Origin: Marine Group II euryarchaeote MED-G33
GTDB lineage: Archaea > Thermoplasmatota > Poseidoniia > Poseidoniales > Thalassarchaeaceae
Length of the DNA: 24,000 nucleotides
Direction of reading: 5' to 3'
Assembly (NCBI GenBank): GCA_002457195.1
Contig: NTJU01000010.1
Span: forward strand, 3,890 to 27,889
Shown: positions 2 to 18,215 of the stretch, piece after piece
How the letters are laid out: every line of letters begins with the position of its first letter
How positions within the stretch are numbered: position 1 is the first letter of the stretch
Translations under genes and position numbers: made by a program
Notes under the pieces: generated by a model
What the model was told of the DNA's origin: nothing
Seen by the model: the letters and a program-made list of their open reading frames with translations, nothing else
Databases searched by the model: none

Positions 2-832
2 ACGGCATATACCTTCTTTGCCATCCTATCCGCCCTATTTGGATATGGCATATTCCGAATCCTCACCGGAGAGGAAAACCCAGCCCACACAACTCGGTTG
101 GGAAACGTTAGGGCAACCCCCGTCGAAGTTCCTGAACCCCGCCCCAATCGATTTGCTTTGGAGGAAGACATGGAGCGTTTGCCGACAATGACAATCGAAA
201 CCACCCTCGAGGAACCACACAGCGACGCCTCAATGGAAATCGATCAAGATGAATCTCCAATCGAAGCAGAACTGGCAGAGGAGGAACCACCATTGTCTGA
301 AGACATACTGGATTCGTCAGAAGCACTCCTTGCTGAAATCGGCGCTGAATGGGATACTAACCCCAGGGCCCAACCTGGCCAAACCCCCCTCACCGTCGAA
401 ACGGGAGAGGAAGTATCCAACCCCGACCTATCTGATTTCCATGATCGCCTTGAACGAGAAGGCGCTAAATCTGGGCAAGTCCAAGTCAGCCTGATTTGGG
501 ACAATAAAAACGATTTGGATTTGAGCGTAGTTTGTCCCTCAGGTGAACGAATCTCATTCGATAACAAATTATCAGCATGCGGCGGTCAGTTGGATGTCGA
601 CATGAACGAATTGCCCACCAGTGAGCAACCGGTCGAGAATATTTTCTGGGCAGCAGGGAAAGCGCCCACTGGCGAATACAAGGTTTTGATTGAGCATTTC
701 GAGCAGCATGACGAAGAAGACCTCACACCTTACCGCGTCCTTGTGGATGATGGAAATGGCCCCAAAGAGTATCGAGGAGAGATCCTCAATGATGAACCGC
801 CCCGATTGGTGTGCAAGTTCACAGTCGAATAG
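2..832 (+). CDS. 5'-truncated membrane-anchored protein with an acidic linker and a C-terminal YfaP/DUF2135-like beta-sandwich domain
   Basis: The frame is open from the window edge, with no stop before the ORF track's TTG at 98. The extra residues read TAYTFFAILSALFGYGIFRIL, a TM-like helix, so the true start probably lies upstream of the window. Stop is TAG 830-832. An acidic low-complexity linker precedes a conserved C-terminal domain (473-829). Confidence 0.65.
   Translation, partial: TAYTFFAILSALFGYGIFRILTGEENPAHTTRLGNVRATPVEVPEPRPNRFALEEDMERLPTMTIETTLEEPHSDASMEIDQDESPIEAELAEEEPPLSEDILDSSEALLAEIGAEWDTNPRAQPGQTPLTVETGEEVSNPDLSDFHDRLEREGAKSGQVQVSLIWDNKNDLDLSVVCPSGERISFDNKLSACGGQLDVDMNELPTSEQPVENIFWAAGKAPTGEYKVLIEHFEQHDEEDLTPYRVLVDDGNGPKEYRGEILNDEPPRLVCKFTVE
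473..829 (+). other. YfaP/DUF2135-like domain, copy A
   Basis: GQVQVSLIWDNKNDLDLSVVCPSGERISFDNKLSACGGQLDVDMN..PVENIFW..APTGEYKVLIEHF. The same motif order (L-x-WDN-x-NDLDL, P-S/G-GE, GG-x-LD-x-x-MN, ENI/V-x-W, P-x-G-x-Y-x-V) recurs at 3011-3376 and 4070-4435. Confidence 0.6.
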
Positions 833-843
833 GAGAGAATCAA

Positions 844-1281
844 ATGCGCCTCTCCAGAAAATCTCGCAAATTTCAACGCCGCACCAACCGAGCCAGAACC
901 ATCGAGTCCTTGCAAACGATTGCAAACGAAGTCCAAGTTCAATACGATAGCCGAGAGATTACCCACAATGAGGCGATTGCCCTGGGAAATCAAATCCAAA
1001 TTAGGGCAGAATCCATCGACAACAGCCAAATCGTTTACGCGATCTCAGATCGAGATACATATCGCAGACTGATTGAGGTATACCTCGACGATGGGATTCT
1101 AACCAGAACTGAACAAATTCTACTGTGGGACGAGCGAAGAAAGTTGGGAATCAGCGAAACCTCTCACGATGCATTGCTAGCATCATTGGTTGCACGATAC
1201 CAAAAACAGGGCCGCGCCATCCACATCCAATCATTACCAACCCCTTCGAGGGATGAAGAAGAAGATCCAACAGGAGAGTGA
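844..1281 (+). CDS. small basic/helical protein of unknown function, possibly TerB-like
   Basis: ATG 844 lies 6 nt after GGAGAG (832-837) and 12 nt after the upstream stop. Its stop, TGA 1279-1281, lies 4 nt before the next ATG. The N-terminus is basic (MRLSRKSRKFQRRTNRAR). The segment YRRLIEVYLDDGILTRTEQILLWDERRKLGIS weakly resembles the TerB-type D-G-x-h-x3-E-x3-L...LG-h-S helix pair. Confidence 0.55.
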   Translation: MRLSRKSRKFQRRTNRARTIESLQTIANEVQVQYDSREITHNEAIALGNQIQIRAESIDNSQIVYAISDRDTYRRLIEVYLDDGILTRTEQILLWDERRKLGISETSHDALLASLVARYQKQGRAIHIQSLPTPSRDEEEDPTGE

Positions 1282-1285
1282 CTCA

Positions 1286-4200
1286 ATGGACACCTATGTT
1301 GGATATGCGATTGTCTCGTCCATCGTATTGGTCATGGTATGGCAAGCGATTTCACACCTCAATCAAGGCCGAAGAAAAACCGAATCATTACTGGGCACAT
1401 TGAAAATGGAAGATATCGAAATCGAAGACACACTCCCGCCATCGCGTACATCTCAACACCAATCTTTGGTCGGCCCTAGAATCGAATATTCGCCTGATAT
1501 GACTCCCTTTCCCACAGATTCGAAAGCCCCCCATTCTGATCCACGCATCCGTATGAAGCAAGAAATCACCGAGTTACAGGGAACCAACATTGAACGATAT
1601 TCAGTACTTGAGAGATCAACAGAAAAAATGGCCGAATGTAAAGGCATCATCGAATTGATTCGGGGCCTAAGTGAAGAATACAATATTGACGTCAACCAGG
1701 AACTGATTGAAGCACCTCTTGAGGGCGCAACCCTAGTCGAACTGGAATTACGACAAGCCGCCCTATTGGAATTATATGACCGAATGTACCAACTGACTTT
1801 CGAAGACACCATCCAAACGATTCGAAAGAGGGAACTTGACTACCAAGAGCACCAAGAAAAATCTGCCAAAGAAAAAATTGATGCCGAAACTCAAGGATTA
1901 TCAACACAATTGGAACAACTGAGGCGCGAAGAAGAGCTGTATCGGGAAATTCGTTCTGCACAAACAGTTGATTATCTGGAAAGTTTGGATTTCTCTGAGT
2001 TGGATGAAGAAGGATCCACTCGCCTCAAAGCGCATTACGAATTTTACCACTCCCGCTTGAGTGAAAAGGCCCGCATCGAATTTGAGGCAGAACTGTATCG
2101 CCACTTTACTGATATGATTCATGATAGTGAAAGCCAAGAAGAATTACAAAACATGGTGTTCGAAGATTTACCAGTCGCTCAGTTGACCGAATTAGATGAA
2201 CGCAGAAACAAACGCATTATTGCACTAGATGCGAAAGATCAGAAGGACAAAGAAGATGCTAGAGCCGAAGAGATTCGCTTGGGAATAGAATCTGCCAAAT
2301 CTTCATCCGAACTTGACCGAATTCGAATCTCAGGCGTAAATCCAACGCAAGATGAAGAGTTACGGGAACTCTTTGCTCGAACCAGAGAAAATCTTGTTTG
2401 CGATGAACTGAATGCTAAAATTTTGAATTGTGAATATGTAATTGAATTAGACTCACTCAAAATTCATGGAGTCACGGAAGAACAATCAGAGCTTTTGACA
2501 GAGATCAAAATCAACAGACGCTCCGAATTGGTAGAACTTGCACGCCAAAGGAAATTCACTGAGCAATACACCAGATACCTGGATTCAATCCCTCGAATAG
2601 AGGATATAGAGGGCCTATTAGAGGTCGACATTGTCAACGTCACCGAAATCCAGCAACAAGAACTCGAAAACCTCCGTCTTACTCGTTTAGATTTTCTTGA
2701 AGAAATCGAACGCCAAAGAATCGAACAAGAACAAGCCGCTCAATATCAAACCCTTCGGGGCTCTCTTGAAACAGCCAGAACATCTGACGAAATCGATGCG
2801 ATCGAAATCAAAGGCGTTAATGAAGAACAAGAAGAACGCCTCATCGAAATCAAGGAAGAGATAAGGGAAATTCTCGTCGAAGATGAGTTGGTCACAAAAC
2901 ACGTTGAAAAAGCAGAAAAGAAATCGAAAAAGTCACCACTCCCAGACGATTTTGATTTTGAACCCGAATCAGCATTCCGAACCCGAATCAAGACATTGGA
3001 TGCTGGCGACGGCAATTTGCGTTTCAGTTTGTTATGGGACAACATGAATGATCTGGACCTCATTGTACGAACTCCTTCTGGAGAAATTATTCACAGAGGT
3101 AAGAAGAAATCATCCTGCGGAGGGATTCTAGATTTAGAGATGAATTCACAGCCCGAAATGAAGTCAGCATTGGAGAACATCGTTTGGCCACAAGGAACCA
3201 CACCACCCAAAGGCACCTACAATGTATTCGTTTGGCACAGAAAACGTCACCAAAGACTCCGCAAATCAGATCCAACAATTTTCACCCTAAGGGGTCGAGT
3301 TGGAGCAGATTATTACCAATACTCTGGAAAAATGAGCTTTGGTGACAAACTCAAATTAATTGCATCATTCGATGTACCCGATGCCGAGACTTTAGATCAA
3401 CGAATAAAATCTGAAACGGAACTTTATCGCCACCAACGTGCAGATGTAATGTCTGCACAAACCATCGAAGAGTTCCCTGAAATTGATGACGACATCTCAA
3501 CAGTACATCGTGTAATGCTCAACAGATTGATGGAAAAAAGGGAATCAGAACTTGAAGAGGCCAAAAGAAAGCAATATATTGCCGAACAAGAGGAACAATA
3601 CAATCGAATCATGATTGAAATTGATGCAGCCAGGGACCTTGATGAACTGTCTGCAATTCGCTATAATAACGTGTCAAGTGATGTGGTGAAATATATCGAG
3701 AAAGCGATTACAAAACGTCGGAAACTGATTGATGCTGGCTTGAAGAGAAAGGAGCAACAAGAAGCCAAGGAACGGTACGAAAAATATCGGAATATGATTA
3801 ACGAATCTCAAAACTTGACGACCCTCGCATCCATCATTTTCGAAGACGTTGATGATCGCGAAGCCAAATCACTCCAACAGTTGAGGATTGCACGTCGGAA
3901 AGTGATGCACAATAATATGAATAGTGCGGATATTGAGAAGGATAAGCAAACAAGATTACACTCGGCGTTAAACGATGCCTACAAACGCGGCGGCCTCCAA
4001 CCAATCGGTGACGACGAGTGGCGAAAAAGTGATTTTGACGAGCGCCTAGAAAACGAAAATGCAAGCACCGGAGATCTCCAAGTATCTCTAATGTGGGACA
4101 ATAAAAACGACTTCAATTTACTCGTCGTTTCACCCGGTGGCGAAATTGTACACCCCCGGAATAGGGAATCAAGTGATGGCGGAATCCTCGACATTGAGAT

Positions 4201-4438
4201 GAACGAAAAAGGAAAAACACGAACACCAATTGAAAACGTGTTTTGGCCCAAAAGTAGTACTCCCAAAGGCGCTTACTACGTCTATGTCCATTTCTACAAA
4301 GAGCATGAATTATTCAAGAAAACAAATCTCTCTGAATGTCGAATCCAAATTCAGAATAAAGGCGAAAGATCTGAATTCTCTGCACAAATGTCAGTCTCAA
4401 ATAAATTGCAATTCATTACTTTGGTACAGGTGGTATGA
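1286..4438 (+). CDS. giant membrane-anchored coiled-coil repeat protein carrying two YfaP/DUF2135-like domains
   Basis: ATG 1286 is preceded by GGAGAG (1273-1278). N-terminus MDTYVGYAIVSSIVLVMVWQAISHL is a TM helix followed by NQGRRK, so the positive-inside rule suggests a cytoplasmic bulk. About 900 aa are E/K/R/Q-rich helical sequence with recurring units. Two conserved beta-domain copies lie at 3011-3376 and 4070-4435. The track's start at 1190 would overlap the upstream gene by 92 nt and lacks an RBS. Confidence 0.8.
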   Translation: MDTYVGYAIVSSIVLVMVWQAISHLNQGRRKTESLLGTLKMEDIEIEDTLPPSRTSQHQSLVGPRIEYSPDMTPFPTDSKAPHSDPRIRMKQEITELQGTNIERYSVLERSTEKMAECKGIIELIRGLSEEYNIDVNQELIEAPLEGATLVELELRQAALLELYDRMYQLTFEDTIQTIRKRELDYQEHQEKSAKEKIDAETQGLSTQLEQLRREEELYREIRSAQTVDYLESLDFSELDEEGSTRLKAHYEFYHSRLSEKARIEFEAELYRHFTDMIHDSESQEELQNMVFEDLPVAQLTELDERRNKRIIALDAKDQKDKEDARAEEIRLGIESAKSSSELDRIRISGVNPTQDEELRELFARTRENLVCDELNAKILNCEYVIELDSLKIHGVTEEQSELLTEIKINRRSELVELARQRKFTEQYTRYLDSIPRIEDIEGLLEVDIVNVTEIQQQELENLRLTRLDFLEEIERQRIEQEQAAQYQTLRGSLETARTSDEIDAIEIKGVNEEQEERLIEIKEEIREILVEDELVTKHVEKAEKKSKKSPLPDDFDFEPESAFRTRIKTLDAGDGNLRFSLLWDNMNDLDLIVRTPSGEIIHRGKKKSSCGGILDLEMNSQPEMKSALENIVWPQGTTPPKGTYNVFVWHRKRHQRLRKSDPTIFTLRGRVGADYYQYSGKMSFGDKLKLIASFDVPDAETLDQRIKSETELYRHQRADVMSAQTIEEFPEIDDDISTVHRVMLNRLMEKRESELEEAKRKQYIAEQEEQYNRIMIEIDAARDLDELSAIRYNNVSSDVVKYIEKAITKRRKLIDAGLKRKEQQEAKERYEKYRNMINESQNLTTLASIIFEDVDDREAKSLQQLRIARRKVMHNNMNSADIEKDKQTRLHSALNDAYKRGGLQPIGDDEWRKSDFDERLENENASTGDLQVSLMWDNKNDFNLLVVSPGGEIVHPRNRESSDGGILDIEMNEKGKTRTPIENVFWPKSSTPKGAYYVYVHFYKEHELFKKTNLSECRIQIQNKGERSEFSAQMSVSNKLQFITLVQVV
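3011..3376 (+). other. YfaP/DUF2135-like domain, copy B
   Basis: GNLRFSLLWDNMNDLDLIVRTPSGEIIHRGKKKSSCGGILDLEMN..ALENIVWPQGTTPPKGTYNVFVWH, colinear with copies A and C. Confidence 0.6.
4070..4435 (+). other. YfaP/DUF2135-like domain, copy C
   Basis: GDLQVSLMWDNKNDFNLLVVSPGGEIVHPRNRESSDGGILDIEMN..PIENVFWPKSSTPKGAYYVYVHFY, colinear with copies A and B. It forms the C-terminus of the protein. Confidence 0.6.
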
Positions 4439-4499: not shown

Positions 4500-4534
4500 A
4501 AGTATAGACAGAAATACAAATTGGAGTGATTGTA

Positions 4535-7500
4535 ATGCGAAATAAAACCTTCACAGTTTTCGTAATTTTACTGTTGAGTACCCTCGCTCCTTTGTGCGTT
4601 AACACATCAGATCCCGCTCAAACCACCACAACCATATCCAGCACGGCTAGAGCAGCAAGTGCGGATATCAATATCACACAAATTGAGTGGATCGGACCAT
4701 CTTACTATTGCAACCCCTGTATAACGGACGTACTCGCCCCAGGTCCCCAAGAAGTTCGCATCACACTTGCAAATGACGGCCTCCTCAGCGGAATGGGCGC
4801 CCTCACCGTGTTCATTGACAGTGCTGATGGAATGGGTTATGTTACAATTGACTCCCAATCGGTCAACCTCTTACCTGGGGCCGTTGCTCAATACGTATTC
4901 AGTTGGACAGCCACACCAGGAATCAATCAACAAATCCGAGCCCATGCTCAAACGATTCCAGAAATCAATCCTTCCAACAACCTATTGGAGCAATTTTTCG
5001 ATGTAACTGCCCAGAATACAGGAGAGGTCTATTCAGACACCCTTCCTTCAGATGGGGCGCGACTATCCCTGGGCGAAGAGGTAGTTTCTGTCGGCGTTCG
5101 GAATACAGGGAACCTAGACACAGAGGCGACTCCGATAATCGTACTAACTCCCCTTGGTGGAGGAACTCCAGTATCGTTCACCGGATCAGCAATACCCCTT
5201 CCAGCAGGAAGTATCGCCTCCCCACCACCGGTTGAATTGGCTTCCCTCGTCATTAACGCGTCGTCCCTTTCGGGCGATTACACACTATCGGGTGATGTAT
5301 TCTTCAATTCAACAACTCCCCCTCTTTCAGACATCGTGAGCATCACCCCTCGCACAATCACATTTAGCCCATATCGAACCATTTTGTTGGCACCTAGTGA
5401 TCGAGCTGTTGAACCCGGTGGCTCCACAACTTTGACATTCATGGTTCAAAATGTCGGAGATGCCCCCGATCGATACAATTACACAATTACTGATGTCCAA
5501 GGATGGGCTGCTATTTCGGGCAATCCCTCTCAAACAGAAATTGTGAATGCATCATCATCGACAACCATTGTAATATCTGTTACAGTACCATTTGGAACCG
5601 ACCGATCTTTGTCCGATTTAATCACCGTAGAAATCGAAAGTGAAGGGGGGGAATACAATCTTTCCAATCACGCCGCAATCATGGCAGGAGATTTGCTATT
5701 GGGTGAACTTAACCGCACCACAGGCAGCTGGCTCGTGCCAATTATTCCCGGGACCGAAGAAACAATTCAGTACACTTTGCGAAACAACGGCACCTCACCA
5801 GCAATCTTCAATCTTGAAGCCGGATTCTCGCAAACTGCGCCAGGGTGGTCTGTTGAAATCCACCCATCGACCACACCATACATGACCGTCGGCGAAGAAA
5901 TCATCATCAACGCCGTAGTTCAACCTCCCGCACTTTCACTCCCATTCGATCCGACAACAAAACTTGCAGAAGGCAATCAATTGACTCTTTGGACTGCGAT
6001 AACTCCAGTAGGGGGTGGCCCAAATGTTCAGCAGACAACCCTTGAAATTCAACCGACGATGATGATTGAATTATTTGCCGAGCAAACTGAATTCTCTATT
6101 GACCCATCTGAACTTTTGATTGGACCAATCTCCAGATTCGTCGATATTGAAATGGAATTGCGACACAATTTGGTTTCAGGAATTGCAACTGCAGGGGGAG
6201 CCGACATCCAACTTACATCGACACCGATTGAATTCACATCATCTAGAACATCAAGCGGACCAAATGAGATACTGCGATGGAACAGCTCAGTTGCACCCAA
6301 TCAAACCACTATGGCGATGGGCGACTCGGAACCACTTGTGGCCACAATCCTAGGCCCTTCAGATATGCTACCACTCGCCGGCTCGCTCGTCATCGACGTT
6401 GTCGCCAACCTAACCTTGTTAGGTTCATCGGGTGGAATCGAAGCCCCCGAATCCAATATTAGCATCACACTCAGCATCCCTGAACTAACTCTGGCAGATG
6501 TGGAAATACCACCGCCAACAACCGTGACCCCTGAAATTATGACGTCGACCCCGATCATTGTTTCCAATACGGGCAACCACGAATCGAATCTCTCACTAAG
6601 TGTCGAAGGCCCAGAAGGTTGGATTACATCCATCACTCCAACCTCCATCACCGATCTCAATTCAATCGTGGACGCATGGCCTTCAGTCGGCGGCGATAAT
6701 GTGACCACAACACTCAGTGTTACAGCGCCCCAGAACACCCGCGCAGACACTCCGTTCGACGTCAACATCACCGTATCGGATGACATGGGAGAAATTCTGA
6801 CAACGACTTCGATCCCATTCCTCGTGGAAGAGGTAATCGGTGCATCACTATCCCCTGAATATGCAGTAGCGGTCATTCCTGTCAATGGAAACTCATCCAT
6901 CGCATTAGAGGCCAATAATACAGGCAATTCCTTGCAGACATTTACAATTGAAATTGAGGAAACTCTCGAAGACATCAATTTGACACTAATCTCAAGCCCC
7001 CAAATTGCAATCGAGCCAGGCGAGGTCAGTATCGTTCAAATTGAAGTCACTGCTGAACAATTTGCACGTGCCGATGAAAACCATAGTGCACAAGCCGTAA
7101 TGTATCACAACGGGGTAGAACTCGATCGAATCGATGTATATGTCGAAATGATTCCCAATCACCAAATTGAATTCGAACATGCCACTGAATATTCTGTTGT
7201 CCCCGGGATGTCTCTCAGCATCCCCGTCAATGTCACCAATGCAGGCAATCTCGAAGAGTTCATCAATTTCACAACAATTCCCCCGGAAGGATGGCAATCA
7301 TCAGTCACACCATTGAACATGACAATCGATGGTGAAGGCATCGAAATTTTACCTCTGATTGTCGATGTTACAATCCCACCAATGTCAACAGATGCAGGGT
7401 TAGAACCGGGCTCAATCCACAACTTGTTCATATTGGCAAACAATGTTACTGATTCGATTCAAGTGGGAATGTCCACAATTCAATTCAATGTTGAACCTGT

Positions 7501-9253
7501 GTTTGTTCTATCATCGGACGATTTCCCAGATATAGTGGAGCTGTTGCCGGGTGAACAAAGGACATTTGATATTGAAATTTCAAACGATGGGAACCAAGAT
7601 GTAATCCTCGATTTAGACTGCGAAGTAGACAATCCAAATCGATGGGACGTATCTGCTTGTGATGCCACAAACCTAACACTCGATAGTGGAGAAGTGCGCA
7701 CAGTATCCTTCAGCGTGCAAGGCATCGCATCAGATCATTACAATCTCGAACAATCCGACCTACGCCTGACATTTTCACCCCAGGACAATCATTCGGGCGA
7801 TGCCCTCCTTGCAACCGTTCTCCGAATCAGTCGAATACACATTGACGAACCAGTTGACCTCTCAGGTGGCGAATCAACACATGACATCGAAATCGATTGG
7901 ATGCATGTTCAGGGGGTCGGACAAACTGCCGACTCCAGCCCGATTGGATATGAGTTGGAGTTGGTAAACGAATCTCGTTACATCAACGAATCATTGTACC
8001 CCGGAGATCTAGCATGGGATCTCGAAATTGACTATGGCAATGGTTTCGTTCCACTCTTCGACAACGGCCCCTTCACACTAAACTCTGTAGCGCCACTGCA
8101 GCAGCAAACAATGACTATTCGGGCAAATCTCCCACCTTCAGTCAACATCCCTCCTGGTGATGGATATACTTTGAAATTCAACCTAACACATCCCACAGAA
8201 CTCACAACCACAGAACTCACACTCGATTTACGGGTCGATGCTTGGGCCGATCCAGCCATCATTTCGATTACAATTGATGGAGATTCAAGTATCGTGGAAT
8301 CAATGTCGGGAACATTGTACGCCAACATCCAAAATGCAGGCAATGCAGGAACTGCACTCGGCGTCGTGGCTACATTAGAGTGCACCACTGGAATCACAAT
8401 TGATGGTGAAGCAACACAACCTCTCATTGGGATGCAACCATTTGAAACACGTCAACTGGAATGGCAAATCCAGTCAAATGCATTGAATTGGTGGAGTTCG
8501 GATGAAGTGGTTCCGTGCACAGTCACAATAGAAGCCCCTGATATGGCTGGTGACGACGAATCAAACGACATCAAATCTCAGTCGATGACAATTGAATCAT
8601 GGTCGCTACCCTTGCTGGTGTTAATTCCAATCACATTCTCCTTGGTCACCGTTTCGAGTCGACTATTGCGCCGCGCATCTGAGGACGAACGCTCCCTCAT
8701 GTTGTGTGCATATTCAGGAACAGCCTTATTGGGCATCGCTACTCAATACAATCTTGGTTCATACGTCAATTTCTCACTCGCCGCTACCGCATTATTGTGG
8801 GTCGCTTTCATCACCTCACGAACATCAGCGTTCGAGATCCCTGCAATTCTTTCCGATCGGCAAAATATGCAGCGCGGCTCAGAATCAATCTTCGAAGACC
8901 ACGAACAAGAAATGGACCGAGTCCTCAAACAACTCGCTGCCAAATTGGCCTTTGCACCCTTGGGCTTCATCTTGGTCGCCATCATCATGCCAAATGACAT
9001 CTCATGGGCTTTAGCCAACATCGGCTCAATCATTCTCTATGTGGTATCAGGGGCACTCGTAGTCACCTACATGACACTCCGCACTCGAAACATTTGGCTC
9101 ACGATCTTTGACCAGTTAGCGGCCATGGAAATAGAGTCTCAAGAACTACTAGTCCAACTGGGCAACCCATCCGCAGATTTGCGGAGAATCACCATTGGGC
9201 AGAGATGGGGAGAGGCGCACGACGTAAGCGTGGAGGTAGATGCAGATGTCTGA
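4535..9253 (+). CDS. giant secreted, sequon-rich surface protein of tandem CARDB/NEW3-like beta-sandwich domains with a C-terminal polytopic membrane domain
   Basis: ATG 4535 lies 6 nt after GGAGTG (4523-4528). MRNKTFTVFVILLLSTLAPLCVNTS is a Sec-type signal peptide. There are at least eight V/L-x-N-x-G-N/D strand signatures (VRNTGNLD, VQNVGDAPD, LRNNGTSPA, VSNTGNHES, ANNTGNSLQ, VTNAGNLEE, ISNDGNQDV, IQNAGNAGT) plus P-E/G-GW strands (APGWSV, GPEGWIT, PPEGWQS). I counted roughly 30 N-x-S/T sequons by eye. Bases 8600-9100 encode about five hydrophobic helices (WSLPLLVLIPITFSLVTV, LMLCAYSGTALLGIA, FSLAATALLWVAFI, LAFAPLGFILVAIIM, IGSIILYVVSGALVVTYM). Confidence 0.85.
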   Translation: MRNKTFTVFVILLLSTLAPLCVNTSDPAQTTTTISSTARAASADINITQIEWIGPSYYCNPCITDVLAPGPQEVRITLANDGLLSGMGALTVFIDSADGMGYVTIDSQSVNLLPGAVAQYVFSWTATPGINQQIRAHAQTIPEINPSNNLLEQFFDVTAQNTGEVYSDTLPSDGARLSLGEEVVSVGVRNTGNLDTEATPIIVLTPLGGGTPVSFTGSAIPLPAGSIASPPPVELASLVINASSLSGDYTLSGDVFFNSTTPPLSDIVSITPRTITFSPYRTILLAPSDRAVEPGGSTTLTFMVQNVGDAPDRYNYTITDVQGWAAISGNPSQTEIVNASSSTTIVISVTVPFGTDRSLSDLITVEIESEGGEYNLSNHAAIMAGDLLLGELNRTTGSWLVPIIPGTEETIQYTLRNNGTSPAIFNLEAGFSQTAPGWSVEIHPSTTPYMTVGEEIIINAVVQPPALSLPFDPTTKLAEGNQLTLWTAITPVGGGPNVQQTTLEIQPTMMIELFAEQTEFSIDPSELLIGPISRFVDIEMELRHNLVSGIATAGGADIQLTSTPIEFTSSRTSSGPNEILRWNSSVAPNQTTMAMGDSEPLVATILGPSDMLPLAGSLVIDVVANLTLLGSSGGIEAPESNISITLSIPELTLADVEIPPPTTVTPEIMTSTPIIVSNTGNHESNLSLSVEGPEGWITSITPTSITDLNSIVDAWPSVGGDNVTTTLSVTAPQNTRADTPFDVNITVSDDMGEILTTTSIPFLVEEVIGASLSPEYAVAVIPVNGNSSIALEANNTGNSLQTFTIEIEETLEDINLTLISSPQIAIEPGEVSIVQIEVTAEQFARADENHSAQAVMYHNGVELDRIDVYVEMIPNHQIEFEHATEYSVVPGMSLSIPVNVTNAGNLEEFINFTTIPPEGWQSSVTPLNMTIDGEGIEILPLIVDVTIPPMSTDAGLEPGSIHNLFILANNVTDSIQVGMSTIQFNVEPVFVLSSDDFPDIVELLPGEQRTFDIEISNDGNQDVILDLDCEVDNPNRWDVSACDATNLTLDSGEVRTVSFSVQGIASDHYNLEQSDLRLTFSPQDNHSGDALLATVLRISRIHIDEPVDLSGGESTHDIEIDWMHVQGVGQTADSSPIGYELELVNESRYINESLYPGDLAWDLEIDYGNGFVPLFDNGPFTLNSVAPLQQQTMTIRANLPPSVNIPPGDGYTLKFNLTHPTELTTTELTLDLRVDAWADPAIISITIDGDSSIVESMSGTLYANIQNAGNAGTALGVVATLECTTGITIDGEATQPLIGMQPFETRQLEWQIQSNALNWWSSDEVVPCTVTIEAPDMAGDDESNDIKSQSMTIESWSLPLLVLIPITFSLVTVSSRLLRRASEDERSLMLCAYSGTALLGIATQYNLGSYVNFSLAATALLWVAFITSRTSAFEIPAILSDRQNMQRGSESIFEDHEQEMDRVLKQLAAKLAFAPLGFILVAIIMPNDISWALANIGSIILYVVSGALVVTYMTLRTRNIWLTIFDQLAAMEIESQELLVQLGNPSADLRRITIGQRWGEAHDVSVEVDADV

Positions 9254-10109
9254 AATTGCTACAATCTCAACCAAGAGTAATTATCGGGCTCAAGTGACTA
9301 GACTGAATTTGATTCTTGACGAACACATTCGCTTGATTCAAGAATCGGTGACGGATAAACATGCACGAGATGCCAAACGCAGCATCCGACAAGCTCGACA
9401 AGATATAGACGAACTCAAGACCCAAGTCGGGCGAATGCACCGCTCGATTGGGATGCTGCATACAATTATTCGGGAACGATCGACGACTGAAACGGAACTG
9501 GTTGATGTGCTGTTGACAATGAAAACAGCGGAGACCCTCATACTTCGAGGCGCATTCGATGAAGCATCACTCCAATTGGAGAGATTGGTCGAACACCTAC
9601 TCGTCAATAGTGCTGCATTGAACCCCTTCATTTTCTATGAATTTTGGATGGGTGTCGAAGCGCGTTGGGAAGCAGGATCCGAAGGTGGGCAACTCTTGGT
9701 CAGAGTTGAAAACACAAGCCCAGGACTCCTCCCTGGGTTTAATGTCAAGGCACCAGTACCTCCAAATTGGCGCTCATCTCCACCATCTCAGTCCATCATG
9801 GCTCTCGACCCCGGCCAATCCTGTGACCTGATCTTCAATATCACCCCTTCAGCAATGGCAGCCATTAGGGAAGTGGGGGCACCAGGGAGCCTCCAAGAAA
9901 AATTGTCAATTCAGACCGGTTACAATCTGACTCAAGAAGGCCTCACAATCAATTGCAGGGTTGAGAATAAAACAGGAGAAACCATGACTGAAGTTTTGGT
10001 GACACCTTGGATTCCCCCTGGGTGGAAAACAAACTCTTGGCCATTCATTCGAACGCTAGAACCAAATCAGGTTGAATTCGTCGAAATTAACCTTGATTTG
10101 GCCAAATAA
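9246..10109 (+). CDS. hypothetical protein with an N-terminal helical region and C-terminal NEW3/CARDB-like beta-sandwich; no signal peptide
   Basis: ATG 9246 lies 8 nt after GGAGGT (9232-9237) and overlaps the upstream stop (ATGTCTGA). ATG 9240 is an alternative start. The C-terminal half has LLVRVENTSPG, CRVENKTGETMTEVLVTPWIPPGWK and a NITPS sequon, echoing the domains of the preceding giant protein. No N-terminal hydrophobic segment is present. Confidence 0.6.
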   Translation: MSEIATISTKSNYRAQVTRLNLILDEHIRLIQESVTDKHARDAKRSIRQARQDIDELKTQVGRMHRSIGMLHTIIRERSTTETELVDVLLTMKTAETLILRGAFDEASLQLERLVEHLLVNSAALNPFIFYEFWMGVEARWEAGSEGGQLLVRVENTSPGLLPGFNVKAPVPPNWRSSPPSQSIMALDPGQSCDLIFNITPSAMAAIREVGAPGSLQEKLSIQTGYNLTQEGLTINCRVENKTGETMTEVLVTPWIPPGWKTNSWPFIRTLEPNQVEFVEINLDLAK

Positions 10110-10141
10110 CCCATGGGGCCCCGAGTATTATCATAGAGTAG

Positions 10142-10170
10142 AATAAAATACCTTCTTGGCTAAAAATAAA
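10142..10170 (+). promoter_or_regulatory. A/T-rich TATA-box candidates upstream of the archaellin gene
   Basis: AATAAAATA (10142-10150) and TAAAAATAAA (10161-10170) lie 20-47 nt upstream of ATG 10189, within a 79-nt intergenic spacer. The second would predict a nearly leaderless transcript. This rests on motif resemblance only. Confidence 0.3.
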
Positions 10171-10188
10171 CTACAGGAACGTGAACAA

Positions 10189-10767
10189 ATGCACCGGAAG
10201 AAACCCTACCTGAACGAGAACGAGAGTGGCGCCATCGGCATCGGTGCGATGATTATCTTCATCGCATTGATTTTGGTCGCTGCAGTAGCATCAACAATTA
10301 TCATCAAAACAGCTGAAGAACTTCAACAAAGAGCAGAAGCAACTGGTGATGACACACGAGATGAAATCAGTGGAAAAATCCAACTGGTTGGCGCGTACGT
10401 CAGCGATGATAACGCAGCTGGAAATGCAGCAGACGAAATTACACTGATCGTTCAACTCAGTGCTGGTTCAGATACCACCTTACTGGACAACATGGATTGG
10501 TTCATTGTTTGTGATGGTGGTGCAGGTACAGCAGATGTCAATACAGCTGACTTTGACGGTGTTGCAACAGACTTGGACGGAACACTTCTTGTAGCCGGTT
10601 CGTCAGTAGAGGCCGGTGAAACATTCCTGGTTCCAATTGACACCTCGACAAACTGTCAACCCGGTGTTGGTGATGAACAAGAACTCCGTGTAATCATCGA
10701 CGGTGGTGGCGAAACTTACGCCCAACTACACTACAACAGTATAGGCAATGGCGATACCATCGTATGA
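10189..10767 (+). CDS. arlB: archaellin (archaeal flagellin, FlaB/ArlB family)
   Basis: The class III signal peptide and archaellin N-terminal helix read MHRKKPYLNENESG|AIGIGAMIIFIALILVAAVASTIIIKTAEELQQRAEATG. The predicted prepilin-peptidase cut falls between G and A (10230/10231). The gene is followed by arlF-J. ATG 10189 gives a 14-aa leader, whereas the track's TTG 10156 gives an atypically long 25-aa leader. Confidence 0.9.
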   Translation: MHRKKPYLNENESGAIGIGAMIIFIALILVAAVASTIIIKTAEELQQRAEATGDDTRDEISGKIQLVGAYVSDDNAAGNAADEITLIVQLSAGSDTTLLDNMDWFIVCDGGAGTADVNTADFDGVATDLDGTLLVAGSSVEAGETFLVPIDTSTNCQPGVGDEQELRVIIDGGGETYAQLHYNSIGNGDTIV

Positions 10768-10780
10768 TACTATGATAACC

Positions 10781-10807
10781 CCTCTGCCCCCCTACGGGGG
10801 GCAGAGG
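10781..10807 (+). terminator. strong GC-rich hairpin immediately after the archaellin gene (terminator/attenuator)
   Basis: CCTCTGCCCCCC-TAC-GGGGGGCAGAGG is a perfect 12-bp stem, 14 nt after stop 10767. A TTTT tract follows at 10819-10822, just before the next gene's ATG at 10826. Confidence 0.6.
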
Positions 10808-10825
10808 ACATAGTGAGGTTTTGTC

Positions 10826-11650
10826 ATGGGGTTGCTGTCATTTCTCGGATTTGGTTCAAGCGATGATTACGACGATATCGACGAGGCCTCAGTGCAGCGT
10901 TTAGAATCGCTATCGGAGCAAGCCGTTGAGGCAGTGATGGTTCCTGAGGAATCCATCCCGATCGAAGAGGACGCCTGGACACTTGCCCCGTCGCCCGCCA
11001 GAGCACGTGTCGGCGCCAGCGGCTTGGAATCGGCAACAATCGAGAGTAAACCCACACCCGCTCCAACGACAATTGATACCAAAGCAATTGAGCAACGGCT
11101 AGATGACCGCTTCGATCGGATTGAAGCCACAATGAGTATCATGGATGCCCGCCTCACTCAATTACACGTTTCCGACAATTTGACACATGCTCTACCCTCG
11201 GATACATTGGTCACATTAGAATCCGAAGAGAATGAATCAGAGGAGCAAACAGACCCGTCATCAGATGAATCAGAACACTCGGAATCGCCCGTGGTTGAGA
11301 CAGTTAGTCTACTCGATTTGTATGAGGGCAGCGTCGCAGACATCAACCCGTTCTTGAATCGTCGTCGCGATTCACATTCGCAAACCCCATCAGTTTCTGT
11401 AAATGAAATCTCAGCGCTACTGCTTGATCATCTATCATCTGCTTCCGCCACGGCTTTCATCGAGAAAGCAAAATCCAGTGGCATGATTACCAAGAGCGAG
11501 TCTGCTGAATTGAGTGCCATTATTGGATTGGCTGATCCAGCCATCAATGATGGCGGTTCGGAACACTTACCACATCGTACGCTACTGATGTTCGGTTCGA
11601 TGGTGGAAGCCTGGCGAAGTTCTCAGTCCACCTCTGTCGAGGGGGCCTGA
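10826..11650 (+). CDS. acidic, probably largely disordered protein in the ArlC/D/E position of the operon; weak ArlD/E-like C-terminal motif
   Basis: ATG 10826 is preceded by GTGAGG (10813-10818). The stop lies 3 nt before the arlF start. The protein is very D/E/S-rich with an N-terminal MGLLSFLGFG. C-terminal FIEKAKSSGMITKSESAELSAIIGL resembles, from my memory of the consensus, the FlaD/E motif G-W-I-S-x6-L-x4-G-L. Confidence 0.6.
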   Translation: MGLLSFLGFGSSDDYDDIDEASVQRLESLSEQAVEAVMVPEESIPIEEDAWTLAPSPARARVGASGLESATIESKPTPAPTTIDTKAIEQRLDDRFDRIEATMSIMDARLTQLHVSDNLTHALPSDTLVTLESEENESEEQTDPSSDESEHSESPVVETVSLLDLYEGSVADINPFLNRRRDSHSQTPSVSVNEISALLLDHLSSASATAFIEKAKSSGMITKSESAELSAIIGLADPAINDGGSEHLPHRTLLMFGSMVEAWRSSQSTSVEGA

Positions 11651-11653
11651 GAT

Positions 11654-12055
11654 GTGGGCGGTTCTGTTAGCATCTCGGCTTTGATTGTGGGGACGGCACT
11701 CCTCGGAATCTTTGCACTTGCATCACTGTCACTCAACAATAGCGCAATAACAGCCTCAGAAGTCTTAGAAGAGAATCTAGGTGAACCAGAAATGCGCCTC
11801 ATCAATGCTTCCGAAGTAAATGGAACCATTCATCTCAACATCACCAATTCGGGGGATGAACCCATATCCTTTGACAAAACTTGGTTCAGTATCGATGGAT
11901 CCTCACCAATTCGGGCGAGTGATTACCATACACAAACCACTGTTCTATTCGCGGGTGAGATCCAACACATCCAGTTGACAGGTACTGGATTCACATCTCC
12001 AACCCGACTCTTTGTTGCAAGTATGGGCGGCCAATCAGGAGTATCATTTTCGTGA
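11654..12055 (+). CDS. arlF: archaellum stator/S-layer-binding protein ArlF (FlaF)
   Basis: GTG start. N-terminus MGGSVSISALIVGTALLGIFALA matches the FlaF-type MGFSVS + hydrophobic helix. It is followed by a small beta domain (IHLNITNSGDEPISFDKTWFSIDG). Size (133 aa) and position before arlG fit. Confidence 0.7.
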   Translation: MGGSVSISALIVGTALLGIFALASLSLNNSAITASEVLEENLGEPEMRLINASEVNGTIHLNITNSGDEPISFDKTWFSIDGSSPIRASDYHTQTTVLFAGEIQHIQLTGTGFTSPTRLFVASMGGQSGVSFS

Positions 12056-12064
12056 GGTGTGGCT

Positions 12065-12547
12065 ATGGCAGATGGTGGTGCAAGTGAATTGATTATGCTG
12101 ATTTCCGGCCTTTTGGTCGCAGGCATTGTCACCACCTTACTGGTTGCATCATGGGGGGGGCTGGCCAATTCGGTTGACACTGCTCAAAATCAGGCCGAAG
12201 CCAACTCCAAAACAAAGGCCGCATTGGCCAGCGATCCAATGCAAGTTTCTTGGGACCAACCATCTTGTAACCTATCTTTACACATTCAAAATACAGGCAC
12301 CCTTGAATTGTTTGATAGTGAAATAGGCATCATAGCAAATGGCACAGCATCAACAGTAAATCAAACACGATTGCTCGGAAATAGTTCTGTTTGGACTTCA
12401 GGAGAAGTGCTCGAATTACAGGTCTGCCCCGTTGGAATTACGATGTCAGCAGGACAGGAAATCACCGTGACTGTAATTGTGCGCAGCGAGCACTATCAAG
12501 GCATTTCCGGCCAGCATTCATTCAGCGAGGTGATTCGTCTTGTCTGA
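12065..12547 (+). CDS. arlG: archaellum protein ArlG (FlaG)
   Basis: ATG 12065 lies 5 nt after GAGGTG; GTG 12059 is an alternative start. GASELIMLISGLLVAGIVTTLLV matches the FlaG-type ASE-h-I-h-F-I-A helix. A beta domain follows (LHIQNTGTLELFDSEIGIIANG). The gene lies between arlF and arlH. Confidence 0.7.
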   Translation: MADGGASELIMLISGLLVAGIVTTLLVASWGGLANSVDTAQNQAEANSKTKAALASDPMQVSWDQPSCNLSLHIQNTGTLELFDSEIGIIANGTASTVNQTRLLGNSSVWTSGEVLELQVCPVGITMSAGQEITVTVIVRSEHYQGISGQHSFSEVIRLV

Positions 12548-13235
12548 TGATATTGGCCTTGCATTCGAATTGGAAACTGATAGCCTTTCAGACAGTTTGG
12601 GAAGATATCTTCCAAAGAGGTCACTATACATCGTGACGGGCCAGATTGGCTCTGGAAAGAGTTTGATTTCTCAGAGATTGGCCTTTGGACTGGTATCGAA
12701 CAACGTATCAACAACAGTTGCCACAACTGAATTGACAACACGAGGTTGGTTAGAACAAGTGAACAGTTTAGGATATCCGCTGGAGGATGCGGCCAACTCT
12801 GGTGATTTCACCCTACTATCACGTTTTGGAGTAATATCCGATGAAGTTGAAGGGAATGTCGGTATTGAGGATTTGTTGGCTTCTGAGGCATTGCAAACTG
12901 CAGAAATCTCAATTATTGACCGCGCCTCGATGATTCTTCAACACTACGAAGGCACTCCAGACCAACTTCTCAGCCGACTTCGCACATTTTGTTCTGAAGA
13001 ACGCTCACTCATGTTATTGCTGGATCCTGATGAGATTTCAGCAGAGATGTTGAGGACACTATCTTCCTCCGCCGAAGTGGTCCTCGAAATGAAAACTTCA
13101 GAGATTGGTGGTGGGCTATCACGAATATTAGCCGTAACCCGGTTTTTGCGAGCCGCCGGCCCCGTACAACCCAGAATAGGTTGGAGAGTTGAACCAACCA
13201 TGGGCTTCATTGTCGATATTACAGCAGTCAGTTGA
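12540..13235 (+). CDS. arlH: archaellum KaiC/RecA-like ATP-binding protein ArlH (FlaH)
   Basis: TTG start lies 7 nt after GAGGTG (12527-12532) and overlaps the arlG stop by 8 nt. Walker A is GQIGSGKS (12639-12662), preceded by LGRYLPKRSLYIVTG. Size is 231 aa and the gene lies directly before arlI. Confidence 0.8.
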   Translation: MSDDIGLAFELETDSLSDSLGRYLPKRSLYIVTGQIGSGKSLISQRLAFGLVSNNVSTTVATTELTTRGWLEQVNSLGYPLEDAANSGDFTLLSRFGVISDEVEGNVGIEDLLASEALQTAEISIIDRASMILQHYEGTPDQLLSRLRTFCSEERSLMLLLDPDEISAEMLRTLSSSAEVVLEMKTSEIGGGLSRILAVTRFLRAAGPVQPRIGWRVEPTMGFIVDITAVS

Positions 13236-13245
13236 GGGATAAAAC

Positions 13246-14961
13246 ATGGAAGCCGAAGAACTTGAATTCGCCCGAGGGGATCTCAACGGCGTCATGTCTC
13301 GGTACGACCATGTTAGGGAGTGGGTCGAGGATTTTGAAACCAAACATGGAACGCGTCCGATGTATTACGGTCCATTAGATCGCGCCGCTTCTAAACAGAA
13401 TCCACTCAATCTAATCTATCATCTCCGTGGCCCTCTTTTCGCCCATGTCTATCGCCCTCCTCAAGACGAAGAAGGAGGGGGGCAGACCCTATGGTTTGGA
13501 ATTGAACCCTATCTTACCGAAGAAGAAGAGATGATCAAGCAAATTCTTGTTGAGAGATTGCTCAAAGAGGCTCCAAACGCCCCATCATTTTCGACTGACG
13601 CAGAATTTGAATCAATGCTTGGGAATATGATGAAAAAGCACACAAAAATTTCCAACACACCCGTTGCTATTAGCGAAATAGTCACCCCAGTCAGAAGGGT
13701 CCTGGGTCTGAACGACCCACCTCTAAGCGTTACAGAACAACAGATGGAACGGCTACAATACACAGTCATTCGAGATTTGGTACGTTCAGGGCCACTGGAA
13801 ACACTGCTCTCCGATGAAATGCTTGAAGATATTCACGCAGTTGGATTACGCTATATCAGCATGGATCACAAAGTGTTTGGAATGGTCACATCAAACATCC
13901 GTTTCCGAGATCGGGAGATGCTTGAGAGATATCTCCGCGCGATGTCGGAACGTATTGGTCGCCCGGTATCCGATAGCAAACCGATTATTGACGGCGCTTT
14001 ATTGGATGGTAGTCGTATCAACATCATCTATTCAGACGACGTCTCGACATTGGGGTCTTCGTTCACCATCCGAAAATTCGCAGAGGAAACCATCTCAATT
14101 ACTCAATTGATTCAATGGAAAACCATGTCTGCCGAAGTCGCTGCCTATGTATGGCTGTGTTTGGAGAATGGAATGTCACTATTGGTATCTGGAGAAACCG
14201 CATCAGGGAAGACAACAACACTGAATGCAATTCTCCCGTTCATCGATCACAACGTGAAAATTTACTCGGCAGAAGACACCCCTGAAGTCAAAGTTCGACA
14301 CCGTTTGTGGCAACGCCTTGTCACGCGTGATTCCAAAAATGAAGATTCTAGAGTAGAGATGTTCGATCTTCTAAAGGCTGCATTGCGAAGTCGTCCACGC
14401 TACATCATCATTGGTGAAATTCGGGGTGCTGAAGGAGCGACAGCATTCCAAGCGATGCAAACAGGACACCCAGTCATCGCTACATTCCACGCATCATCGA
14501 TTGTCAAAATGATTCAACGATTTACGGGCGACCCGATCAATGTTCCAATGCGTTTCTTTGACAACTTGAACTTCGCAATTTTCCAAGAAGTAGTCGAAGC
14601 CCCAGGTGGAGGAATCGCTCGTAGAATCACAGGAATTGATGAAGTAATTGGATACAACAAACACGCAGATGGTGTTCTCACAAGAGGCATGTTCGATTGG
14701 GACCCTGTTCGCGATAAACACTACTTCAGAGGAATGTTTCAATCGCATCTTATGGAGAACAAGATGGCCGCTCTCATGGGCTTTGAAAATAAGCGTGATA
14801 TCTACGAAGAAATGGCTCGTCGCGCAGAAGCTCTACAGCGCATGGTAGATCGAAATATCACACATTATGATGACGTTTTCGACTTACTCGATATTTACTA
14901 CCAACAGGATTGGGAAGCGTTCTCAAACGCGATTGACATTTGGGTTCCAATTGAGGATTAG
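13246..14961 (+). CDS. arlI: archaellum motor/assembly ATPase ArlI (FlaI), type II/IV secretion ATPase superfamily
   Basis: Walker A is GETASGKT (14191-14214). Also present are LLDGSRINIIY..SFTIRKF, Walker B/Asp box RPRYIIIGEIRGAEG and His box TGHPVIATFHASS. Size is 571 aa. Confidence 0.95.
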   Translation: MEAEELEFARGDLNGVMSRYDHVREWVEDFETKHGTRPMYYGPLDRAASKQNPLNLIYHLRGPLFAHVYRPPQDEEGGGQTLWFGIEPYLTEEEEMIKQILVERLLKEAPNAPSFSTDAEFESMLGNMMKKHTKISNTPVAISEIVTPVRRVLGLNDPPLSVTEQQMERLQYTVIRDLVRSGPLETLLSDEMLEDIHAVGLRYISMDHKVFGMVTSNIRFRDREMLERYLRAMSERIGRPVSDSKPIIDGALLDGSRINIIYSDDVSTLGSSFTIRKFAEETISITQLIQWKTMSAEVAAYVWLCLENGMSLLVSGETASGKTTTLNAILPFIDHNVKIYSAEDTPEVKVRHRLWQRLVTRDSKNEDSRVEMFDLLKAALRSRPRYIIIGEIRGAEGATAFQAMQTGHPVIATFHASSIVKMIQRFTGDPINVPMRFFDNLNFAIFQEVVEAPGGGIARRITGIDEVIGYNKHADGVLTRGMFDWDPVRDKHYFRGMFQSHLMENKMAALMGFENKRDIYEEMARRAEALQRMVDRNITHYDDVFDLLDIYYQQDWEAFSNAIDIWVPIED

Positions 14962-14969
14962 GTGGGACG

Positions 14970-18162: not shown

Positions 18163-18167
18163 GGTTC

Positions 18168-18191
18168 CACCGCCGTAGGCGGTGTTCTTTT
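18168..18191 (+). terminator. GC hairpin plus T-rich tract after the MscS gene
   Basis: CACCGCC-GTA-GGCGGTG is a perfect 7-bp stem (18168-18184) beginning 6 nt after the stop. TTCTTTT follows directly. Confidence 0.45.
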
Positions 18192-18194
18192 AAT
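18188..18194 (+). promoter_or_regulatory. TATA-box candidate for the giant RCC1-repeat gene (would give a leaderless mRNA)
   Basis: TTTTAAT is centred about 25 nt upstream of ATG 18216. No SD-like motif precedes that ATG, unlike most genes in the window. Confidence 0.3.
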
Positions 18195-18215
18195 CGCCAC
18201 ATCTTCCGCGAAAGC

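Follow-up and report, generated by a model that had tools for sequence, protein, structure and literature searches.

The head of the archaellum (arl) gene cluster in the Marine Group II euryarchaeote MED-G33 contains three unannotated genes, here termed g1, g2 and g3, which are real and conserved and form a composite of three layers. The cluster's unknowns can be sorted into an order-wide archaellum core (g2, a large surface/membrane protein and the proteins p289 and p274), a Thalassarchaeaceae layer (g1 together with g0, a gene located just upstream) and the giant g3, an insertion in one sublineage. The genes lie in a stretch of 24,000 nucleotides (nt; GenBank assembly GCA_002457195.1, contig NTJU01000010.1, positions 3,890 to 27,889 of the forward strand), referred to as the window, which is part of a Thalassarchaeaceae (Marine Group IIb, MGIIb) genome and whose relatives are Thalassarchaeaceae metagenome-assembled genomes (MAGs). 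Marine Group II (MGII) archaea are uncultured and the most abundant archaea of surface ocean waters. Their archaellum operon has been reported to contain "several orthologous proteins lacking annotations", syntenic open reading frames (ORFs) that were noted and left unanalysed (Tully, 2019; PMC6336850). The operon has been interpreted as serving adhesion by Rinke et al., who also pointed out that chemotaxis genes are missing (PMC6461757).

The three genes are co-directional (Table 1; ORF listing and direct reading). The g1 frame is open from nt 2 and closes with TAG at 830-832, g2 extends from the ATG at 844 to the TGA at 1279-1281 (145 aa), and g3 starts with the ATG at 1286 and encodes 1050 aa. 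Direct reading of the sequence confirmed the tight coupling claimed in the first-pass annotation, with gaps of 11 nt (g1-g2) and 4 nt (g2-g3) and a Shine-Dalgarno-like GGAGAG ahead of both g2 and g3. The co-directional archaellum block is confirmed too, with ArlB, F, G, H, I and J present. No RNA family was identified in the window by an Rfam scan. A reading of g1-g3 as a defence system was dropped, with nothing significant in Pfam, NCBIfam and PADLOC scans of the three proteins.

The window proteins were searched by tblastn against 95 fetched loci, for which called genes were also consulted, and the loci fall into three classes. In class A (18 loci), the gene order, read as far as each locus extends, is g0, g1, g2, g3, a gene for a ~1570-aa surface/membrane protein, p289, arlB, p274 and arlF, G, H, I and J. 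The trio is kept as neighbours in these related genomes: all class-A loci able to hold the full g3 ORF carry it (15/15), with identities down to 51%. The g2-g3 gap is 0 nt in locus L004, 21 nt in L007 and 4 nt in the window and L008, and the gap between g3 and the surface-protein gene is 1-2 nt in L004 and L007. Class B (11 loci: L003, L020-L026, L057, L094 and L095) lacks g3; here g2 lies directly before the surface-protein gene (with a 4-nt overlap in L094) and the g1 homolog is divergently oriented. A g0 homolog is located beyond g1, adjacent to it in L003 (10814-11899) and separated from it by a nitroreductase gene in L094, where the 357-aa homolog was judged by size and position. Class C comprises about 60 loci from the rest of the Poseidoniales, mainly MGIIa, which contain a gene for a protein with a transmembrane (TM) helix, a charged helical part and a YfaP-like domain, located in a conserved housekeeping neighbourhood that offers no functional clue and has no arl gene within 8 kb. 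The arl cluster of a Poseidonia (MGIIa) genome begins with a g2 homolog (51% identity) that shares 17 nt with the surface-protein gene, and the YfaP-like gene of this genome is located on a separate contig (L050, with the arl cluster on L092).

Where g3 is absent, g2 and the surface-protein gene overlap by 4-17 nt, which means that g3 entered a translationally coupled pair and remained tightly linked to it. g1 adjoins g2 in either orientation, in Thalassarchaeaceae only and together with the upstream g0. The first-pass annotation had described the three genes as one module, which does not hold: in MGIIa the cluster has g2 and neither of the other two, class B combines g1 and g2 but has no g3, and the trio is confined to class A. 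Nor is the architecture particular to this locus, as nearly every Poseidoniales genome sampled encodes a TM-stalk-YfaP-like protein elsewhere. A representative of this Poseidoniales-wide protein (418-aa ORF, CM001443.1, L066:7416-8672) shares with g1 and g3 the charge pattern of an N-out/C-in anchor, a helical spacer and a domain 47-59% identical to the g1 copy, and differs from them in its location away from arl, its single domain copy and its E/R/A-rich helical spacer without 55-aa repeats. g0 (318-361 aa; 27-983 on contig L001, just upstream of the window) has a ribbon-helix-helix (RHH)-like N-terminus with a weak match to CcdA (E 0.08), accompanies g1 in either arrangement, co-linear or divergent, and may be a regulator.

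g2 heads the arl cluster across the Poseidoniales, in MGIIb as well as MGIIa. Its 240 homologs share 49-99% identity and 31 invariant residues, including the block YAISDRDTYRR..E.YL.D..L.RTEQ.LLW.ERR.L, and an AlphaFold2 (AF2) model consists of six helices (mean predicted local distance difference test score, pLDDT, 89). The earlier description of g2 as a small basic helical protein is thus accurate as to the helices and inaccurate as to the charge, the overall isoelectric point (pI) being 6.3 with an Arg/Lys-rich N-terminus as the only strongly basic part. g2 has no match in the PDB by sequence or by fold (Foldseek) and none in Pfam or NCBIfam. Two candidate relationships of its core were rejected, namely that the segment DGILTRTEQ...RRKLGI is another instance of the g3 repeat (probability 0.1% when g2 and g3 were aligned by hhalign) and that the core is SHOCT-like (no match to Pfam SHOCT).

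An exact-sequence look-up of the window's g3 gave no match, and orthologs were taken instead. The 19 full-length orthologs are 1046-1055 aa long, share 51-100% identity and derive from Thalassarchaeaceae wherever the source is named. The description of g3 as a TM-anchored protein of ~1050 aa with two further domain copies was borne out, whereas "coiled coil" appears imprecise: its helical parts consist of 7-8 copies of a ~55-aa repeat, resolved by an iterated hidden Markov model (HMM) built on the g3 orthologs, with per-repeat E-values of 1e-15 to 2e-19 and Gly/Pro-containing turns (e.g., ...IRISGVNPTQ...). Furthermore, self-comparison uncovered an internal duplication, in which residues 216-697 align with 373-1049 (E 2.7e-38), and self-alignment by hhalign gave shifts of ~52 and ~112 residues. 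No DNA-level repeats underlying the protein repeats were detected by a tandem-repeat finder, so the duplication is old. The ~55-aa helical repeat is newly defined here as a sequence pattern in g3 and was found in no protein other than g3 orthologs among all fetched loci; the idea that it also occurs in the extended helical regions of other YfaP-like proteins from Poseidoniales was rejected, as no matches were obtained.

The domain shared by g1 and g3 is homologous to the C-terminal domain of bacterial YfaP. As claimed in the first-pass annotation, the three copies are colinear, with 36-38% identity and 34 invariant columns, and BLASTP of the g1 domain against g3 yields E-values of 7e-29 and 5e-24, far beyond chance. 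The likeness to YfaP proposed in the first-pass annotation proved to be real homology. Escherichia coli K-12 yfaP was fetched and compared directly with the family alignment (A2): a family profile of 61 members matches the C-terminal half of E. coli YfaP with an hhalign probability of 97.8% (E 1e-12, 84 columns), and the g1 copy matches it in BLASTP with 34% identity over 103 aa (E 2e-10). Close relatives also pass the threshold of Pfam DUF2135 (PF09906) in 19 of 69 cases (best E 7e-9), providing transitive matches, and several matches carry the JGI label "YfaP (DUF2135 family)". Whole g1-g3 proteins have no significant match in Pfam and NCBIfam, and the isolated copies remain below the PF09906 gathering score of 22 bits, with only copy 3 matching at all (12.8 bits, E 0.13), because the Pfam model spans 48 positions of the ~120-residue domain. 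DUF2135 hence corresponds to a full ~120-aa beta-sandwich domain that is under-detected by its 48-residue Pfam model; an HMMER scan of 1.84 billion representatives recovered 10,573 clusters (counted at 50% identity) at E <= 1e-3 and 1,569 at E <= 1e-30. Tandem arrays of up to 13 copies occur in individual proteins, and partner domains include zinc ribbons, GYF, C-type lectin, PPC, P-domain, OmpA and vWA.

The AF2 model of the g1 domain, computed from the family alignment, has a pLDDT of 97.4 and shows a beta-sandwich of nine strands with a short N-terminal helix packed against it. Foldseek of this model against the PDB returned no significant neighbour, the best being the P-domain protease 3HJR (E 0.014). 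A profile search of PDB sequences likewise identified no solved relative closer than marginal subtilisin jelly-roll matches, namely a weak match to the jelly-roll of Thermococcus Tk-SP over WDN..DLDL..DP.G (E 0.005); the Pfam P_proprotein match is also marginal (E 0.09). The Tk-SP jelly-roll holds two Ca2+ ions (PMC3599501). PPC and P-domain jelly-rolls (Tk-SP, 3AFG; Aeromonas ASP, 3HJR) share with the family a small beta-sandwich and the strand-turn-strand motif, the matches being marginal, and differ in that they sit on secreted proteases, whereas g1 and g3 have no protease domain. In the family alignment, D27, N58, E68 and N69 show no variation, and conservation reaches at least 90% at D29, D54 and D56; the invariant or nearly invariant residues are mainly Asp, Asn, Glu and Gly, and the conserved motifs are WDN-ND-LDL, GG-LD-D-N and PVEN. 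The cluster of invariant Asp, Asn and Glu residues, together with the weak likeness to jelly-rolls of Ca2+-binding proteases, suggests a metal-stabilised binding module.

The archaeal domains share with E. coli YfaP (PF09906, COG4676) a homologous ~120-aa beta-sandwich and the motifs sWD..DLDLhV..P.GE, G.LD.D and G.Y.V.v.yY. In contrast to the archaeal proteins, which have an N-terminal TM anchor, are predicted to be cytoplasmic and are encoded next to archaellum-cluster genes without yfaS, yfaQ, yfaT or yfaA as neighbours, YfaP has a cleavable signal peptide and an unrelated N-terminal half and belongs to the alpha-2-macroglobulin yfaA-T-S-Q-P operon. The archaeal domains additionally possess an ERLEREGA helix, a PVENI-W strand and often a Cys pair. 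This pair (VVCPSGE ... S-x-CGG) is common to g1, the stand-alone Poseidoniales proteins and a planctomycete homolog, absent from E. coli YfaP and Anaerolineales homologs, and partly or fully absent from both g3 copies; if the domain is cytoplasmic, a metal ligand pair is more likely than a disulfide. The homolog from a Planctomycetota MAG (L074, 8001-8390) is 50-56% identical to the Poseidoniales copies and 41% identical to those of g3, and is therefore nearer to the Poseidoniales copies than the g3 copies are to each other (37%). This points to gene transfer between the domains of life or to a very strong constraint on the sequence. In the planctomycete protein, the charges flanking the TM helix are biased the opposite way. 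Full-text searching of the literature turned up no study on the function of DUF2135 or YfaP, in agreement with the earlier claim that the function of the domain is undescribed, and none of the profile or structure searches placed the domain in a characterised family with a known role. The family is known yet uncharacterised (DUF2135/YfaP-C), and its probably inward-facing, membrane-tethered deployment in Poseidoniales, the repeat giant g3 and the layered head of the cluster all appear to be undescribed.

The missing 5' end of g1 was recovered from a 98%-identical metagenomic contig (L001), which adds three codons beyond the window (MPW-TAYTFFAILSALFGYGIYRIL, start MPWTAYTFF...) and yields a complete 279-aa protein with an N-terminal TM helix. 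g1 agrees with its earlier description as a TM-anchored acidic protein ending in a beta-type domain: the whole protein contains 21.7% D+E, has a pI of 4.2 and lacks N-glycosylation sequons, and the TM helix and the modelled beta-sandwich are at its two ends. Its orthologs in the 18 class-A loci (39-98% identity) are located at the same place, with 39-67% identity in the linker and 71-90% in the domain. Some public g1 calls (e.g., P0001 and P0005) are short, with 220 aa, and start at an internal Met after a strong GGAGGAGG site, whereby the TM helix is lost; g1 orthologs on other contigs are called at 275-296 aa and retain the TM segment at the protein level. A soluble g1 isoform may arise from the internal start. 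Many MGIIa homologs are also called without the N-terminal TM helix and helical part.

Flank charges indicate how these proteins are oriented in the membrane. In 19/19 g3 orthologs, an N-terminal tail of 2-7 residues (usually 5-7) is free of K/R and usually contains Asp or Glu, and the TM helix is followed by LNQGRRK or a variant with 2-3 K/R. The Poseidoniales homologs start 5-8 residues ahead of the TM helix and have 2-8 K/R in the C-terminal flank, the flank of g1 itself contains Arg (GIYRIL...R..R), and that of the class-B g1 homolog in L094 is strongly K/R-rich (...KPPKSSRPRRSRQRRRP). By the positive-inside rule, the archaeal proteins would therefore be N-out/C-in with their domains facing the cytoplasm. 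The composition of g3 is similarly cytosol-like: its K+R content of 14.5% and 0.57 sequons per 100 aa resemble those of ArlI (11.4% and 0.18) and are unlike those of the two large surface proteins of the window (3.1-3.4% and 1.1-2.0). These predictions strengthen the earlier suggestion, based on NQGRRK alone, that the bulk of g3 is cytoplasmic, and g1 and g3 are probably both N-out/C-in with cytoplasmic YfaP-like domains, unlike the periplasmic YfaP. Two bacterial homologs show the reversed bias, with K/R-rich N-flanks, and E. coli YfaP carries a signal peptide.

We tentatively propose, as the best supported of the possible readings, that g1 and g3 are lineage-specific sub-membrane tethers or adaptors co-expressed with the archaellum/adhesion cluster. 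g2 would be a small six-helix cytoplasmic protein encoded by the first gene of the cluster throughout the order. g1 and g3, each largely cytoplasmic apart from a single TM helix and a very short N-tail on the outside, would hold YfaP-type beta-jelly-roll modules at set distances beneath the inner face of the membrane, with one copy on a flexible acidic linker in g1 and two along the ~55-residue repeat stalk of g3, one mid-way and one at the tip. Both would most likely be co-translated with g2 and the large surface/membrane protein, and might serve the archaellum/adhesion machinery as accessory tethers or adaptors, the lineage having no recognisable ArlCDE or ArlX. "Scaffold", as g3 was called in the first-pass annotation, is an interpretive label.

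Several observations weigh against this proposal. The MGIIa arl clusters examined contain g2 and lack g1 and g3, which are therefore not essential core parts; the order-wide g2, p289 and p274 are better candidates for missing core components. The TM-stalk-YfaP-like family also resides in housekeeping neighbourhoods unrelated to arl, and its basic job is therefore probably not archaellum-specific. Furthermore, the charge bias of g1 in the window is weak, relatives of known location are extracytoplasmic (YfaP, the PPC and P-domains, and the Lectin_C and OmpA partners), a Ca2+-type site would suit the exterior of a marine cell better than its cytoplasm, and the Foldseek search gave no significant structural neighbour. 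What is shown comprises the genes themselves, the homology of the domain, the make-up of the repeats and the layering of the synteny; topology, metal binding, co-expression and the role as tether or adaptor are inferred.

That g1 and g3 have no tie to the archaellum, being local variants of the general Poseidoniales YfaP-like protein with a role in, for instance, envelope or ion homeostasis at an insertion-tolerant spot, seems rather unlikely. The class-C loci and the MGIIa arl cluster agree with such an origin, as does the stretch between g2 and the AhpC/flavin-reductase genes, whose content and orientation differ between lineages. Against it, g1 stays beside g2 in both orientations and the identity of its domain drops to ~60%, and g3 is found within a gene pair that is coupled in its absence, with tight gaps in L004 and L007, and keeps its length (1046-1055 aa) down to 51% identity.

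A regulatory or signalling module, in which g0, g1 and g2 control archaellum transcription or assembly and the YfaP-like domain is a cytoplasmic sensor of a ligand or metal (Ca2+), is improbable. MGII would need another route of control as they lack chemotaxis genes (PMC6461757), and Sulfolobus has membrane-bound archaellum regulators (ArnR; PMC10117864); the RHH-like start of g0, its company with g1 in both arrangements, and the Arg/Lys-rich N-terminus of g2 as the invariant first gene would all fit. Against this, g0 and g2 have no significant match to a DNA-binding family, the g2 fold matches no known regulator, kinase, phosphatase and HAMP-type domains are absent, and a 1050-aa repeat protein such as g3 is unlike a signalling protein. 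Very unlikely, finally, are stalked extracellular adhesins (g1 and g3 N-in/C-out, with Ca2+-dependent YfaP/PPC-like domains at the surface complementing a particle-attachment archaellum), for although the extracytoplasmic relatives, the fibril-like tandem arrays, the C-out bias of the two bacterial homologs, the adhesive role proposed for the MGII archaellum (PMC6461757) and the seawater Ca2+ that would occupy a Ca2+ site speak for them, the positive-inside rule is opposite in all 19 g3 orthologs and nearly all Poseidoniales homologs, a signal-peptide-like positive N-region is absent, the K+R and sequon frequencies of g3 differ from those of the window's surface proteins, and the family includes members without TM or signal sequence as well as N-terminal zinc-ribbon fusions.

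A bolder version of the tether/adaptor proposal, for which the prospects appear slim, is that g1 and g3 together with g2 form the missing cytoplasmic anchoring structure of the MGII archaellum, a counterpart of ArlX, ArlCDE or the euryarchaeal "polar cap"; helical-repeat stalks and a jelly-roll that is periplasmic in bacteria would here be turned inward, possibly rendering motor or adhesion Ca2+-responsive. ArlX, a monotopic protein anchored by an N-terminal TM helix and helical in its cytoplasmic domain, occurs only in Crenarchaeota, Euryarchaeota use ArlCDE instead, and the composition of the archaellum polar cap is unknown (PMC10117864). The likeness of g1 and g3 to ArlX is architectural, as they are encoded in an arl cluster and have an N-terminal TM helix and a helical part predicted to be cytoplasmic, in a lineage without recognisable ArlCDE. 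ArlX is smaller and has no beta-sandwich domains, no sequence similarity to any Arl family was detected for g1-g3, and g1 and g3, missing from MGIIa arl clusters, are not core. Searches with Pfam and NCBIfam gave no match to the ArlC, D, E or X families for any protein of the cluster and no significant match to these accessory families for g1, g2 and g3; ArlG (E 8e-19) and ArlF (E 1e-4) were identified as best matches in these searches, yet below the curated cut-offs. A role of g1 and g3 in the archaellum, if real, would provide a first molecular handle on its anchoring in a euryarchaeal lineage without ArlCDE and ArlX.

Table 1. Features of the g1-g3 region and of the genes downstream, with coordinates in the window.
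Feature	Coordinates	Strand	Basis and remarks
g1, membrane-anchored acidic protein, 279 aa complete	2-832	+	Open frame; first 3 codons outside the window
g1 N-terminal TM helix, TAYTFFAILSALFGYGIFRIL	2-64	+	Hydrophobic segment; protein-level conservation in class-A orthologs
g1 acidic low-complexity linker	65-433	+	Composition
YfaP-C/DUF2135-like domain, copy 1 (g1)	434-829	+	N-terminal helix and 9-strand beta-sandwich; AF2, hhalign, alignments
Shine-Dalgarno-like GGAGAG for g2	832-837	+	Overlaps g1 stop codon; 6 nt before ATG; direct reading
g2, six-helix 145-aa protein, basic N-terminus	844-1281	+	Homolog conservation, AF2
Shine-Dalgarno-like GGAGAG for g3	1273-1278	+	Within final g2 codons; 7 nt before ATG; direct reading
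g3, 1050-aa membrane-anchored protein, helical repeats and two YfaP-like domains	1286-4438	+	Orthologs, self-comparison
g3 TM helix, YAIVSSIVLVMVWQAI, then basic flank SHLNQGRRK	1304-1351	+	Kept in 19/19 orthologs
g3 first ~55-aa helical repeat array, residues 220-545	1943-2920	+	5 clear copies and 1 weak; iterated HMM
YfaP-C/DUF2135-like domain, copy 2 (g3 residues 563-699)	2972-3382	+	BLASTP vs g1 domain, E 5e-24
g3 second ~55-aa helical repeat array, residues 778-889	3617-3952	+	2 clear copies; HMM E 1.7e-15, 2.8e-18
YfaP-C/DUF2135-like domain, copy 3 (g3 residues 916-1050)	4031-4435	+	BLASTP vs g1 domain, E 7e-29
Context co-conserved with g2: 1575-aa surface/membrane protein, p289, ArlB, p274, ArlF, G, H, I, J	4526-16763	+	Pfam, NCBIfam, synteny in L003-L010 and L092-L095
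1575-aa surface/membrane protein	4526-9253	+	Signal-like N-terminus, many Ig-like domains (NPCBM_assoc, FixG_C, HYDIN/VesB-like)
p289	9240-10109	+	14-nt overlap with end of 1575-aa gene; kept immediately before arlB throughout the order
p274	10826-11650	+	Acidic, Ser/Thr-rich, no family match; slot between arlB and arlF
MscS-family mechanosensitive channel gene	16789-18162	+	26 nt past arlJ; overlaps start of 1512-aa gene
1512-aa Cys-rich protein (54 Cys)	18159-22697	+	RCC1-like beta-propeller, ephrin-receptor-like, thrombospondin type-3 repeats

The 1575-aa surface/membrane protein carries 31 sequons for N-glycosylation, and its C-terminal region has several TM helices as well as charged loops; in all Poseidoniales arl clusters examined, its gene comes after g2 or g3, with junctions that are often overlapping or 1-3 nt long. 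p289 lacks a signal peptide; its N-terminal half is helical and K/R-rich and its C-terminal half Ig-like (NPCBM_assoc, NEW3), and it may be an archaellum component that has gone unrecognised. p274 occupies the usual position of arlC/D/E and is conserved from MGIIb to MGIIa with 30-77% identity. Downstream of the arl cluster, the Cys-rich 1512-aa protein is probably another secreted adhesion protein.

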